Below, in pieces: positions 4,117-7,881 of a stretch of 7,881 nt of DNA. The translations under genes and the position numbers were made by a program. Numbering within the stretch: position 1 is the stretch's first letter; each line of letters begins with the position of its first letter. The stretch covers positions 1 to 7,881 of the forward strand of contig JAKSVZ010000023.1 of assembly GCA_024407725.1 (NCBI GenBank). Reading direction: 5' to 3'. Source of the stretch: Opitutales bacterium. Its GTDB lineage: Bacteria; Verrucomicrobiota; Verrucomicrobiia; Opitutales; UBA9783. The notes beneath the pieces are model-generated. The model had not been told where the DNA came from and made no database searches. It saw only the letters and a program-made list of their open reading frames with translations.

Positions 4117-4965
4117 TTAGAACGTCCGTCCTACGCCCAAATAGATTTGGTCGGAATGGAAATTCGCCAACTTCGGAATTTCATACCCATAACATTTAGC
4201 ACCAAACATCTGGTGTAATCCGATATGGCGATAACCAACCTCAAACAAGGTTTCAAATTTTTCAGCGCGTACAAACAGACTAAAATTGTACAGCAACGAG
4301 CCGGAATGGACGTACTTACGGTTGCCGCTGATAAGGTCGGTAACCGTAACGCCATTTAATCGCCAATATTCCAAAGTAGTAAACTTGGTACAGACATAAG
4401 CGCCACCGATACCACCGCCGATACCGACTGATAACCAATCTAATATATACTGTTCCCAATAGATATTAGCCTGTGCTCCCGCAATGCGTTGATTTTTAAG
4501 AAAACATGCTCCAATATTAATGCTTCGTATCTGATGCCCAGCTTGATCTCGTATAAGACGACGTTTTTGAAAAGCAAAATCGGGGCGATAAGGCATCATA
4601 ACATTATTCCAATTTGAATCCTCACGTTTGCGGTTCTTTACACTGACATAAGCGCCTAATATTTCTATTTCTAATCCTAAAGCTCCTGTATCGAACACAT
4701 CAAACCGTCCGCCTAAAGCAACCGATAAATTACGGTGATTGCTATATGGAATTTTACCTGATGTACACTCATTGTTTCGTACTATGCAGGGATTTACTAA
4801 GCCAACGGTATTCGGGTAGTTACTGTCCCCTTTACTAAACGTTCCCCAATCATCCCCCTTCAGCTCACCAAACCCCGACCGTACCATGACGTACAAACCA
4901 TAACAGGGGGTATGTATACCTAGCGTTAATGCTAGGGCTAATAATAAACTTATTCTTTTAGTCAT
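4117..4965 (-). CDS. Outer-membrane beta-barrel protein, paralog 1 (OMP_b-brl/Opa-OmpA-like class; exact family not recognised)
   Basis: 282 aa. N-terminal signal peptide MTKRISLLLALALTLGIHTPCYG. Alternating-hydrophobic strands, a glycine-rich GIGGGIGGAY segment, and a C-terminal YLGVGRTF ending in Phe, the typical OMP/BAM signature. Strong paralogy with 6842-7810. Confidence 0.75.
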   Translation of the reverse strand: MTKRISLLLALALTLGIHTPCYGLYVMVRSGFGELKGDDWGTFSKGDSNYPNTVGLVNPCIVRNNECTSGKIPYSNHRNLSVALGGRFDVFDTGALGLEIEILGAYVSVKNRKREDSNWNNVMMPYRPDFAFQKRRLIRDQAGHQIRSINIGACFLKNQRIAGAQANIYWEQYILDWLSVGIGGGIGGAYVCTKFTTLEYWRLNGVTVTDLISGNRKYVHSGSLLYNFSLFVRAEKFETLFEVGYRHIGLHQMFGAKCYGYEIPKLANFHSDQIYLGVGRTF

Positions 4966-5022
4966 TTCCTTATAAGGCGTTTCCTTATAAGGCGTTTCCT
5001 TATAAGGCGTTTCCTTATAAGA
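4963..5022 (-). repeat. Four tandem 15-nt units; the last unit contains the paralog 1 start codon
   Basis: In gene sense the units read TCTTATAAGGAAACG, CCTTATAAGGAAACG, CCTTATAAGGAAACG, CCTTATAAGGAAATG. The last unit differs from consensus only by ACG->ATG. Each unit holds the perfect 10-nt palindrome CCTTATAAGG (9/10 in the distal unit). Confidence 0.95.
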
Positions 5023-5050
5023 TTTTGGGCATTTTTGTGGAAAATCAAGC

Positions 5051-5070
5051 TTTTTTTTTGGGGGTGGGGT
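5051..5070. repeat. Homopolymer block T9 G5 T G4 in the divergent intergenic region
   Basis: Read directly: T9 at 5051-5059, G5 at 5060-5064, T at 5065, G4 at 5066-5069. In paralog 1 sense this reads CCCCACCCCCAAAAAAAAA immediately upstream of a -35-like TTGATT (plus strand 5043-5048). Confidence 0.9.
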
Positions 5071-5089
5071 AGAAGCTACGCCGCTTCTA
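5070..5089. other. Inverted repeat TAGAAGC-TACGCC-GCTTCTA (7-bp stem, 6-nt loop)
   Basis: The arms are exact reverse complements. It abuts the G/T homopolymer block. No U-run follows on either strand, so its function is unknown. Confidence 0.3.
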
Positions 5090-5215
5090 TGGCTAACGGA
5101 TGGGTTAGCAAGGTTCCATTAAGGCAATACGTTCGATCGATAAAGCTTCTTTCATTTTTACTTGCTAGGTATCCGATAGGATGCAAGGATAATACTACTT
5201 AGCGAGGGGCGAGCC

Positions 5216-6052
5216 ATGGAATCTTTTTTGCCTAAAGATTTTGATTATTCAGCGCCTTGCGTTTTGTTAGCTGGGCGTGGGGATTATCCGCGGTTGTTAT
5301 GGGGCACCTTAAAAGAGCTATGTCCGCGAGCTGTTGTATTTGGATTTGAAGCAGAAGCAGCTGCATGGATGCAAGCGATTCCGGACAACCAACGGTTTAC
5401 GTTTGAAGTAGGTCAGGTGGGGCATTGGTTGCAAGCGCTCAAAAAGGTTGGAGCTCGTTATGTTTGGCTTGCAGGGCAAATTCAACCCAAAAAGTTGTTT
5501 CATGGATTAAAGCCCGACCTAAAAGCCATTTGGTTGCTATCGAAATTAAAAGAAAAGAATGCGACAACAATTTTTGGTACTTTGATTCGCGAAATGGAAG
5601 CGTTGGGGATTACGGTTTTGGATGCGCGCTGTTTTATGGAATCGCAGCTTACCGCTAAAGGCCTGTTAACCCGCAAAGCGTATACTGATATTGATGATGC
5701 CACCCTACAGCATGGAATTCGGGTGTGTCGGGGGATTGCCGAGCTGGATATTGGGCAAAGCGTGGTGGTTCATAAAGGCACAACGGTTCTGGTTGAAGGA
5801 TTCGATGGGACCGATGCACTCATTGAACGAGCAGGGGCTATTTGCGACCACGACATGGGGCTCGTTAAACTGGCGAAACCGACGCAAGATTTTCGCTACG
5901 ATGTACCGATTTTTGGCCTGCATACCCTACAAGCCATGCAGGCGGCTGGTATACAATGGGCTGCGTTGGAAGCCGAACGAACGTTGATTTTAGATAAGCC
6001 GGCAGTTTTGGAAGCAGCGGATCGCCAACACATTACCTTAATCGGCTTTTAA
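5216..6052 (+). CDS. lpxI: UDP-2,3-diacylglucosamine pyrophosphatase LpxI (DUF1009 family)
   Basis: 278 aa. SD-like GAGGGG sits 6 nt before the ATG. VLLAGRGDYP at the N-terminus, and ELDIGQSVVV...LVEGFDGTDALIERAG...LAKPTQDFRYDVPIFG match the conserved LpxI blocks I recall from Caulobacter LpxI (LDIGQ, EGTDA, KPxQDxRxDxPxIG). Confidence 0.85.
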   Translation: MESFLPKDFDYSAPCVLLAGRGDYPRLLWGTLKELCPRAVVFGFEAEAAAWMQAIPDNQRFTFEVGQVGHWLQALKKVGARYVWLAGQIQPKKLFHGLKPDLKAIWLLSKLKEKNATTIFGTLIREMEALGITVLDARCFMESQLTAKGLLTRKAYTDIDDATLQHGIRVCRGIAELDIGQSVVVHKGTTVLVEGFDGTDALIERAGAICDHDMGLVKLAKPTQDFRYDVPIFGLHTLQAMQAAGIQWAALEAERTLILDKPAVLEAADRQHITLIGF

Positions 6053-6056
6053 TCCC

Positions 6057-6767
6057 GTGAATACAGAACTGATCGGTTGGAAAGGGAAGACGTGGAATCC
6101 CGTTACCGGCTGCACGAAAATAAGCGAAGGCTGTATGCATTGCTACGCCGAACGGATGGCAAAACGCCTTTGTTTAATGGGGCAAAAGAAGTACAGCCAT
6201 GGATTTGCAGTTACCGTACACCCCGAGAGCTTAAACGAACCTTTGCAATGGAAACGCTCTCTGTCGATCTTTACCTGCTCCATGAGCGATTTGTTCCATG
6301 AACAGGTGCCCGAAGCTTTTATCTTGCAGGTATTCCGCGTGATGAACCAAGCCCATTGGCATACATTTCAGGTATTAACGAAGCGAGCAGAACGCTTGGC
6401 GCAAGTAGCTCCTAAGATAACTTGGACTCGCAATATCTGGATGGGCGTAACAGTAGAATCTCAAGCGCAAACCAAGCGTATCCCTTATTTGGCATCGGTC
6501 AATGCCGCTGTTCGTTGGTTGTGTATTGAACCGATGGTAAGTGCTATCCCATCCCTAGATTTGCGCGCTATTCACTGGGTAATTTTGGGAGGCGAAAGTG
6601 GTCCCTTTGCGCGCCCACTTCCAGAAGATTGGGTTGTCGGTGTACGCGACCAATGCGTGGCCAACAACGTACCTTTTTATTTTAAACAATGGGGCGGCAC
6701 TAACCGTAAAGCTAATGGCTGTACCCTACAGGGGCAACAATGGCGCGAATTTCCTTATGTCCTGTAA
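6057..6767 (+). CDS. DUF5131 / phage Gp37-Gp68 family protein (three-Cys motif)
   Basis: 236 aa with a GTG start 4 nt after the lpxI stop. The N-terminus GKTWNPVTGCTKISEGCMHCYAERMAKR is the characteristic TWNPxxGC-x6-C-x2-CYA block of this family (C19, C26, C29). Confidence 0.85.
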   Translation: MNTELIGWKGKTWNPVTGCTKISEGCMHCYAERMAKRLCLMGQKKYSHGFAVTVHPESLNEPLQWKRSLSIFTCSMSDLFHEQVPEAFILQVFRVMNQAHWHTFQVLTKRAERLAQVAPKITWTRNIWMGVTVESQAQTKRIPYLASVNAAVRWLCIEPMVSAIPSLDLRAIHWVILGGESGPFARPLPEDWVVGVRDQCVANNVPFYFKQWGGTNRKANGCTLQGQQWREFPYVL

Positions 6768-6773
6768 CGGGAC

Positions 6774-6805
6774 AAAAATAAAAAATCCGACAAACCTGTG
6801 TCCGA
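6774..6805 (-). terminator. Candidate intrinsic terminator for paralog 2
   Basis: In minus sense: UCGGACA-CAGGUU-UGUCGGA (7-position stem with one G:G mismatch) followed directly by UUUUUUAUUUUU. The stem is weak, hence the low confidence. Confidence 0.35.
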
Positions 6806-6815
6806 CTTGAAAGGC

Positions 6816-6832
6816 AAGGGGACATACCCCTT
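6816..6832. other. GC-rich hairpin AAGGGG-ACATA-CCCCTT in the convergent intergenic region
   Basis: Exact 6-bp stem, starting 9 nt after the paralog 2 stop in minus sense. No adjacent U-run on either strand. Possibly a 3' UTR stabiliser or part of a bidirectional stop. Confidence 0.3.
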
Positions 6833-6841
6833 CAATAGTGC

Positions 6842-7810
6842 TTAGAACGTCCGACCTACGCCCAAATAGATTTGGTCGGAATGCATACTGGCCAACTTCG
6901 GGATTTCGTACCCGTAGCATTTTGCACCAAACATCTGATGCAAGCCGATATGGCGATAGCCGACTTCGAATAGCGTCTCAAACTTTTCTGCGCGTACAAA
7001 CAGGGTGAAGTTATACAACAATGAGCCGGAATGGACGTACTTACTCCTTCTTATCGGATTATTACCATAACCATACCACATAAAGTGCCGATGGCCGGTA
7101 GGATCAACGCCTATATCCAATACACGCCATCTTTCAAAGGTAGTAAATTTGGTGCAAACATAAGCGCCGCCAAGTCCTCCGCCGATCCCTGCGGATAACC
7201 AATCCAAAATATACTGTTCCCAATAAAAATTGGCCTGTATCCCTGCAATTCGTTGATTTTTTAGATACATTGGAACAATATGAGCCATATGTAACATTCC
7301 CCAATCCGTATATTGCACCCTAAGGAAATCTGGGCGTTCTATATTGATATGATCCATATCATCATAATTGAGTTGAGGCCCTGCTAAGTGAGGTTCAACC
7401 CTATCGCGTTGTTTTCTCCCTAAATTGGCATAGCCGCCGAGGATTTCCACTTCGATCCCTAAAGCCCCTATATCGAAGATATCAAAACGTCCACCGAGCG
7501 CTACCGATAGGTTTTTGTGACCCTTGTACTCAAAGCGTCCTGCGCTACAATTGGTATTGCGTACAAAAGTATTCGATGGGCTAAAAACCACAGTATCTGG
7601 ATCTTCGTGATGGGCACGCGGATCAATCCATTCGGTAGCCTCCCACGTTGGCAACGTACCTTGTTGTTTTTCGAAGCTACCGATATCACCATCTGGCTTT
7701 AGCTCGCCAAAACCACTACGTACCATGACGTACAGACCATAACAGGGGGTGTGGATTCCTAAAGCAATGCTTAGGGCTAATAAAATGCTTACTTTTTTAG
7801 TTGTTCTCAT
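6842..7810 (-). CDS. Outer-membrane beta-barrel protein, paralog 2
   Basis: 322 aa. Signal peptide MRTTKKVSILLALSIALGIHTPCYG. The N-terminal GLYVMVRSGFGELK, the central NLSVALGGRFD, KNQRIAG.QAN.YWEQYILDWLS.GIGGG.GGAYVCTKFTT, and the last 66 aa (63/66 identical) are shared with paralog 1. C-terminal GVGRTF. Confidence 0.75.
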   Translation of the reverse strand: MRTTKKVSILLALSIALGIHTPCYGLYVMVRSGFGELKPDGDIGSFEKQQGTLPTWEATEWIDPRAHHEDPDTVVFSPSNTFVRNTNCSAGRFEYKGHKNLSVALGGRFDIFDIGALGIEVEILGGYANLGRKQRDRVEPHLAGPQLNYDDMDHINIERPDFLRVQYTDWGMLHMAHIVPMYLKNQRIAGIQANFYWEQYILDWLSAGIGGGLGGAYVCTKFTTFERWRVLDIGVDPTGHRHFMWYGYGNNPIRRSKYVHSGSLLYNFTLFVRAEKFETLFEVGYRHIGLHQMFGAKCYGYEIPKLASMHSDQIYLGVGRTF

Positions 7811-7881
7811 ATAAGAAGTACCTATGTAAGAAGTACCTATGTAAGAAGTACCTATGTAAGAAGTACCTATGTAAGAAGTAC
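7804..7881 (-). repeat. At least four perfect tandem 15-nt units plus a degenerate unit containing the paralog 2 start codon; truncated by the window end
   Basis: The plus-strand unit TACCTATGTAAGAAG sits at 7819, 7834, 7849 and 7864, all identical, and a fifth begins at 7879. In gene sense the unit is CTTCTTACATAGGTA. The start-containing unit CTTCTTATATGAGAA (7818->7804) matches it at 11/15. Confidence 0.95.

Follow-up and report, generated by a model that had tools for sequence, protein, structure and literature searches.

Start-codon-containing tandem repeats of variable copy number at predicted outer-membrane protein genes of Opitutales bacteria: candidate contingency loci

We analysed a window of 7,881 bp, which is the entire contig JAKSVZ010000023.1 of an 'Opitutales bacterium' metagenome-assembled genome (MAG; locus tags MJ218_039xx) and carries two paralogous genes for predicted outer-membrane proteins, gene 1 (MJ218_03905) and gene 2 (MJ218_03920), each preceded by a perfect tandem array of 15-nt units whose terminal unit contains the start codon. 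Start-codon arrays recur in this protein family and in relatives of the MAG, and their unit number differs between closely related strains. They are probably hypermutable minisatellites of the initiation region (variable-number tandem repeats, VNTRs) that would tune individual surface-protein paralogs as contingency loci do, the step from unit number to expression being inferred. If copy number does control expression, repeat-mediated surface variation would extend to uncultured Verrucomicrobiota of the ruminant gut with genomes of roughly 1 Mb.

Two start-codon arrays in one window

Tandem Repeats Finder (TRF) returned exactly two arrays in the window, at 4965-5021 (3.8 copies) and 7812-7881 (4.7 copies), each with a period of 15 and 100% identity. 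Together with the gene coordinates this confirms what a preliminary description of the window had stated, namely two arrays of 15-nt period with the ATG in the terminal unit. The genes and arrays are located as follows.

4117..4965, minus strand: gene 1 (MJ218_03905), an open reading frame (ORF) of 282 aa with a signal peptide and a predicted outer-membrane beta-barrel
6842..7810, minus strand: gene 2 (MJ218_03920), a paralogous predicted outer-membrane beta-barrel of 322 aa counted from the ATG at 7810
4961..5020, minus strand: array 1, three copies of TTATAAGGAAACGCC followed by the terminal unit TTATAAGGAAATGAC; ATG at 4965-4963 within the terminal unit
7806..7881, minus strand: array 2, one nucleotide of a further unit, four copies of TACTTCTTACATAGG and the terminal unit TACTTCTTATATGAG; ATG at 7810-7808 within the terminal unit

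Array 2 runs off the end of the contig, which makes its count of at least four copies of TACTTCTTACATAGG a lower bound. The probability that perfect periodic identity over 45 to 60 nt arose by chance is negligible.

The two genes are 56% identical paralogs with near-identical signal peptides and last ~66 aa, and conserved termini around a variable middle are found in the family members generally. The family comprises 62 protein clusters; this MAG contributes at least 17 of them as paralogs, and the remainder come mostly from rumen or gut assemblies. Family assignment was attempted for both proteins and gave no match in Pfam, NCBIfam or PDB sequences. The AlphaFold model of gene 2 is an all-beta barrel with strands throughout (predicted local distance difference test score 86, predicted TM-score 0.80), and its Foldseek neighbours, all at low TM-scores, are exclusively outer-membrane barrels (Legionella porins, OmpA, Ail, OpcA, FadL). 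The gene 1 protein ends in ...GVGRTF with Phe as its last residue, so that signal peptide, all-beta antiparallel barrel and C-terminal aromatic residue, the features by which outer-membrane beta-barrels are recognized, are all found. The model thus supports, at the level of fold class, an assignment of the gene products as surface or outer-membrane proteins.

The start regions of the two genes, CTTATAAGGAAATGACTAAAAGAATAAG in gene 1 and CTTATATGAGAACAACTAAAAAAGTAAG in gene 2, align without gaps at 21/28 matches. In gene 2 the family ATG has turned into ACA and a new ATG is found 6 nt upstream (TATAAG to TATATG), and the unit register of array 2 lies ~6 nt further upstream than that of array 1, the same distance as the start-codon shift. 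Since register and ATG are displaced together, array 2 is an independent duplication that again covers the current start codon. Gap-free alignment and 6-nt shift also explain the earlier observation that the two unit types share a loose core in a different phase relative to the ATG.

Independent origins and copy-number turnover of the arrays

Further sequences with family members were labelled L001-L024; apart from that of MJ218_02040 (L008), they were drawn from UBA3869, the single genome returned by a GTDB scan for relatives, and from ENA assemblies, mostly of rumen or gut origin. A scan of JGI metagenomes gave only one distant locus, which is without an array. Within this MAG, array scoring covered gene 1, gene 2 and MJ218_02040 and not the other ~14 paralogs, as look-ups for gene 1 and MJ218_02040 gave records of coding-sequence (CDS) length only and an exact-protein look-up for gene 2 gave no record. 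The family members that were scored fall into the following types.

L002, L009, L012-L018, L022, L023 and the end of L017: TTATAAGGAAACGCC, ...ACACC or ...AAGCC units, 2-6 upstream copies
L008 (MJ218_02040): TTATAAGGAAATGAC, at least 4 copies, every unit retaining the ATG
L020 and L021 (second species): 16-nt unit CTTTATAAGGAAATAA, two copies, 3' edge at the A of the ATG, out of frame
L024, 9969-10001 (second species): (AAAATA)x5.5, abutting the ATG of a divergent member
L003 and L019: a single unit without array

With the terminal unit included, the arrays of L002, L009, L012-L018, L022 and L023 consist of 2-7 units of TTATAAGGAAA(CG/CA/AG)CC. The family thus holds at least four to five unit types, three of 15 nt, one of 16 nt and one of 6 nt, all of which abut or overlap the start codon, with array ends 0-5 nt beyond the A of the ATG. 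In TRF analysis of 264 kb of related DNA, all perfect arrays scoring at least 64 sit at starts of this gene family, and no comparable array was found at the starts of other genes or in other intergenic regions of the same DNA. As judged from unit types and registers, these comparisons show that the arrays arose several times independently, with about four to five origins. The proposal that the arrangement is maintained or regenerated, and does not reflect two coincidental neutral duplications, is borne out by this recurrence in the family and in relatives. However, the 15-nt or five-codon period, which had been taken as conserved, is not, given the 16-nt and 6-nt units of the second species.

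One family member of 40% identity (L005 2465-3313, L011 342-1190, L022 18510-19358) is near-identical between assemblies and adjoins a tRNA gene. In these three contigs it carries neither an array nor the conserved upstream block described below, and it provides the family with a stable internal control.

Unit number was compared between orthologous loci, with counts per locus including the terminal unit.

alr-divergent locus: 5 units in L014 and L016, 3 in L015; 600-nt CDS 100% identical, 300-nt flank 99.7%
alr-divergent locus in UBA3869: 4 mixed units in L002; flank 93.3% identical to L014
SRP54-divergent locus: 3 units in L023, 6 at the end of L017; flank 98.3% identical
tsf-downstream locus: 6 units in L017 and L018, 1 in L003; flank 92.0% identical
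LpxI-divergent locus (the position of gene 1): 4 units in the window, 7 in L022; CDS only ~72% nucleotide-identical

Comparison of these orthologous sequences shows that copy number turns over much faster than point substitutions, and the perfect homogeneity of the arrays likewise implies ongoing turnover. The outcome that would have spoken for coincidence, with relatives lacking arrays and lengths being fixed, is the opposite of what was found, as arrays exist elsewhere and differ by 5 versus 3, 6 versus 1, 3 versus 6 and 4 versus 7 units. As in known contingency loci, a repeat tract lies at the start of a predicted surface gene and its unit number is polymorphic among close strains.

Three contigs (the window, L001 and L008) start or stop inside arrays, and such breaks may hint at unit numbers that change within clonal populations. 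Such positions of several arrays at contig ends could point to assembly artefacts, yet the same arrays are also present in the interior of long contigs that stem from independent samples and assemblers (MEGAHIT k127/k141, scaffolds of other pipelines, the UBA3869 and MJ218 MAGs), and an artefactual origin is effectively refuted. In practical terms, the arrays are themselves a cause of broken metagenome assemblies.

The triplet in phase with the ATG in upstream units is ACG in gene 1 and ATA in gene 2, in agreement with the near-cognate triplets initially noted for the window. They do not constitute a general feature, since ACA, AAG and ACT also replace the ATG in upstream units across the family and L008 retains it. 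Such triplets are inevitable in every copy of an ATG-containing unit that has diverged slightly. Loss of the upstream ATG was tried as a sign of selection and rejected, because two to three differences per unit hit the ATG with a chance of 0.37-0.52 and L008 retains all copies. Both window arrays are stop-free in the ATG frame, reading TPYKE in array 1 and GTSYI in array 2, and together with the ATG retained in each unit of MJ218_02040 this could be taken to mean that the arrays code for variable extensions of the N-terminus or provide alternative starts, with pentapeptide repeats ahead of the signal peptide. We consider this highly improbable. The 16-nt unit is out of frame, the ATG is lost in most arrays (ACG, ACA, AAG, ATA, ACT), and an added peptide would precede the normal signal peptide with no evident benefit. 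To our knowledge, bacteria practically never use ACG or ACA as start codons. The suggestion that a latent N-terminal extension might be the point of the design therefore finds the out-of-frame 16-nt unit and the 6-nt unit against it.

Proposed control of expression and alternative explanations

We propose a model in which an array originates by tandem duplication of the last 10-15 nt of the leader together with the first 1-5 nt of the ORF and would then grow or shrink by replication slippage or unequal exchange. With the geometry of the upstream block fixed, copy number would determine how long the mRNA leader from transcription start to AUG is and what structure it adopts, and the altered leader would in turn set translation initiation and/or mRNA stability of the respective paralog. 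Each paralog would thereby possess a heritable and reversible expression level, diversifying the surface repertoire in the face of phages, grazing protists or the host. Upstream of array 1 the following elements are found.

5021..5050, minus strand: conserved promoter-like block of 30 nt, GCTTGATTTTCCACAAAAATGCCCAAAATC, from the alignment of paralog upstream regions
5051..5069, minus strand: C4AC5 and A9, two homopolymer tracts that adjoin the -35-like hexamer on its upstream side
5071..5145, minus strand: relic of the 3' end of a ymdB-like gene with a 3' remnant of tRNA-Ser, from alignment to L019 (9846-9985) and L009 (470-565)

The family layout consists of C and A homopolymer tracts, followed by a constant 30 nt (GCTTGCAA...AATC) and then by the repeat units, where the distance from the first G of the block (GCTTG) to the first unit is constant across paralogs. 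The fixed geometry of this promoter-like block is what leads us to expect that copy number sets leader length and structure. The block contains a -35-like hexamer, TTGATT at 5048-5043 (minus strand) in gene 1 and TTGCAA in most paralogs, and is a putative promoter. The homopolymer tracts vary in length among paralogs and orthologous loci (C6-C11, A7-A9) and could be a second slippage-prone regulatory element.

The units could themselves be promoter elements, whose -10-like hexamers (TATAAG, TAAAAT/AAAAAT) multiply or reposition transcription starts; in this case a single-unit gene may be silent because no more than 3 nt would separate its -10 from the ATG. In L024 the homologous block forms a good promoter, TTGTCG-17-TAAAAT, with the first AAAATA unit supplying the -10 (TAAAAT) and later units offering alternative ones, and TATAAG matches TATAAT at 5/6 positions and keeps a distance of 23 nt from TTGCAA in every paralog. 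However, a 23-nt spacer is outside sigma-70 geometry, the promoter scan returned nothing at gene 1 or, on the gene strand, at L003, the gene-2 unit lacks a good -10, and the single-unit genes of L003 and L019 are intact and conserved. Multiplied promoter elements are for these reasons an improbable explanation of the arrays.

The relic upstream of gene 1 bears on how the arrays spread. ARAGORN found no intact tRNA at 5071..5145, while the ymdB-like gene and tRNA-Ser are intact upstream of family genes elsewhere (L019, L009), which implies that cassettes were copied or converted along with ~100-150 nt of upstream DNA. This is what would be expected if the arrays were neutral, slippage-prone minisatellites, with duplications that are tolerated nowhere but in the very short leader separating promoter and ORF, accumulate at the ATG for this reason and are spread among paralogs by cassette copying or gene conversion. 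Besides the upstream DNA travelling with the cassettes, a single unit lineage (ACGCC, ACACC, AAGCC) makes up most arrays, and a duplication that reaches into the first nucleotides of the ORF does no harm, as the gene is made whole again by the last copy. On the other hand, at least four to five units or registers (15, 15, 16 and 6 nt) occupy the same spot in two species, other intergenic regions and gene starts in the 264 kb hold nothing comparable, the homogeneity of the arrays implies turnover that is still going on, and the target genes are exactly the class governed by classical contingency loci. Neutrality is in our view a doubtful account, though one with a real share of the probability.

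Unit junctions of array 1 form a perfect 10-bp palindrome, CCTTATAAGG, which recurs every 15 bp. In RNA folding computations, TTATAAGG-type units could pair with their neighbours via the palindrome CCUUAUAAGG, so that, speculatively, the AUG-proximal unit would be sequestered or free depending on an even or odd unit number. The computed cost of opening the AUG region from -12 to +12 in the TTATAAGG-type alternates with unit parity between ~5-6 and 11-13 kcal/mol for both assumed transcription starts. The 16-nt type alternates in the same way (3.3 versus 8.4-9 kcal/mol), the gene-2 unit displays a weak parity effect and the AAAATA array has no structure. In a unit-shuffle control, 19-52 of 1000 shuffles were as stable for the gene-1 type and 19-97 of 1000 across TTATAAGG-type variants, which is modestly above chance, compared to 649 of 1000 for the gene-2 unit. 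Of the self-complementary core that had been ascribed to units of both arrays, only that of the gene-1 or TTATAAGG-type hence stands out from chance. Hairpins as a unifying mechanism were rejected, with the gene-2 unit at chance and the AAAATA array unstructured.

These palindromes allow for a tentative extension of the model, in which the arrays form a distinct class of contingency locus, with start-codon-containing units of 15-16 nt, palindromic pairing and a digital 'parity switch' at translation initiation; we hold this to be unlikely. In such a parity switch, selection for switchability would explain independent regeneration at shifted start codons throughout a surface-protein family of a gut symbiont with a reduced genome, and the prediction would be that expression alternates with unit-number parity. 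The same palindrome at every unit junction, combined with self-complementarity above chance for the gene-1 unit type, could alternatively mark iterated operators, where CCTTATAAGG binds a dimeric regulator every 15 bp and copy number sets the strength of repression. Gene-2 and AAAATA arrays lack the palindrome and no candidate regulator was identified, which renders iterated operators scarcely probable.

In the antisense direction (window 4968-5007, plus strand), the palindromes of array 1 resemble hairpins of intrinsic terminators with a weak T-rich tail and might stop read-through from the convergent thiamin pyrophosphokinase gene.

Shine-Dalgarno use is sparse in this lineage, with a match of at least 4 nt at 35/75 gene starts (L012, L014, L017, L022, L023) and clear sequences, 5-7 nt from the ATG, only at the highly expressed groES, groEL, L21 and L27. 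Duplication of a Shine-Dalgarno sequence was rejected as a general rationale for the arrays, as the AAGGA of the family lies 1 nt from the ATG and the gene-2 and AAAATA units contain none.

Returning to the proposed tuning of surface paralogs by initiation-region VNTRs, it should be noted that several results weigh against it. Most TTATAAGG-type arrays may stem from one duplication that was spread by cassette copying or gene conversion, so that independent origins number about four to five and not one per locus. Every copy-number difference seen is one between samples. The promoter scan found no canonical sigma-70 pair upstream of gene 1, and the hairpin and parity sub-mechanism cannot be general to all arrays.

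Among known systems, Neisseria opa genes carry CTCTT repeats within the sequence that encodes the signal peptide, and the switch works by frameshift. As in opa, a multigene outer-membrane family is equipped with an own repeat tract near the 5' end of each paralog. In contrast to opa, the arrays are placed on the ATG or upstream of it, have units of 15, 16 or 6 nt and are unable to shift the frame of the ORF; the window units in particular, at 15 nt and 5' of and including the ATG, leave the downstream ORF unaffected.

That no similar system had been described, as was initially assumed, proved too strong a statement in view of hmw1A (PMC12721329), uspA2 (PMC7302503) and start-adjacent heptamers (PMC4679880). 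The closest functional analogue of the arrays is Haemophilus influenzae hmw1A, where 7-nt repeats are transcribed in the 5' untranslated region and repeat number acts via an RNase III-processed hairpin (PMC12721329). As for ATCTTTC(n) of hmw1A/hmw2A, a copy-variable repeat is situated between a promoter-like block and the start codon of a surface gene (PMC12721329; PMC8262952), and duplicated paralogous loci each possess their own tract. The hmw1A/hmw2A repeats are in the transcript and their RNA hairpins govern expression; the arrays described here may be transcribed, and hairpins are predicted for TTATAAGG-type units but not for the gene-2 unit or AAAATA. The hmw1A/hmw2A repeats further differ by a 7-nt unit in at least 11 copies, located well upstream of the ATG and without ribosome-binding region or start codon, and the hmw hairpin partner is a separate G-rich arm, whereas the partner predicted here is the neighbouring unit.

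Similarly, AGAT(n) of Moraxella catarrhalis uspA2 is found upstream of an outer-membrane protein ORF and grades expression by repeat number, but is a tetranucleotide located 132 bp upstream, with the start codon outside the repeat and an effect on the level of the mRNA (PMC7302503). TAACTGA heptamers of Beggiatoaceae, Cyanobacteria and Bacteroidetes share with the arrays a position next to the start codon, where the units cover part of the expected ribosome-binding site, in hosts which likewise use Shine-Dalgarno sequences sparsely, and a translational role has been proposed there, though it is unproven (PMC4679880). They differ in being one universal heptamer at ~170 unrelated genes with no tie to surface proteins (PMC4679880), while the units described here come from the gene's own start region and none were found at other genes in the 264 kb. 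The variable G-repeat leader of Helicobacter pylori tlpB is also a length-variable leader repeat with gradual, post-transcriptional control, but consists of a homopolymer acting through a trans-acting small RNA (sRNA) (PMC8295292); no sRNA is known here. New compared to these systems is a 15-16-nt unit that includes the gene's own start-codon region and is regenerated repeatedly across a paralogous family. If the reading holds true, this would represent a new repeat design of long, start-codon-containing units, as opposed to the 1-9-nt promoter or coding tracts of pathogens.

Annotation, host lineage and neighbouring features

In GenBank, MJ218_03920 (345 aa) and MJ218_02040 are annotated as 'partial' and read through the arrays into GTSYI and EMTYK pseudo-repeats, respectively, while ENA gene calls run P0026 and P0011 upstream over a tRNA. 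Traces of arrays in over-extended ORFs comprise GTSYI in gene 2, EMTYK in MJ218_02040 and YKETP in an ENA protein. These over-extended ORF calls are annotation artefacts of stop-free arrays, and the practical consequence is that annotators call false 'partial' ORFs with pentapeptide pseudo-repeats.

An Rfam scan of the window gave only the tRNA-Gln gene and one sub-threshold mmgR/suhB match. The latter, at 4990-5066 on the plus strand and thus over array 1 and the promoter-like block, scores 24 bits against a gathering score of 41 (E = 0.14) and is probably due to chance.

Locus-tag numbering suggests ~800 genes for the MAG, and genomes below 1 Mb have been reported for the Opitutales family UBA9783 of farm-animal guts (PMC12306168). 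The remaining genes of the window encode a PD-(D/E)XK nuclease-superfamily protein, a NifU-like protein, cysteine desulfurase, tRNA-Gln, a small PQ-loop membrane protein, thiamin pyrophosphokinase, LpxI and DUF5131. In L022 (5563-8876) the DUF5131 gene is followed by that of leucyl-tRNA synthetase, whereas in the window (6057-7810) it is followed by gene 2. Because leucyl-tRNA synthetase occupies this place in L022, gene 2 is an extra family copy at the DUF5131 position in the MJ218 lineage.

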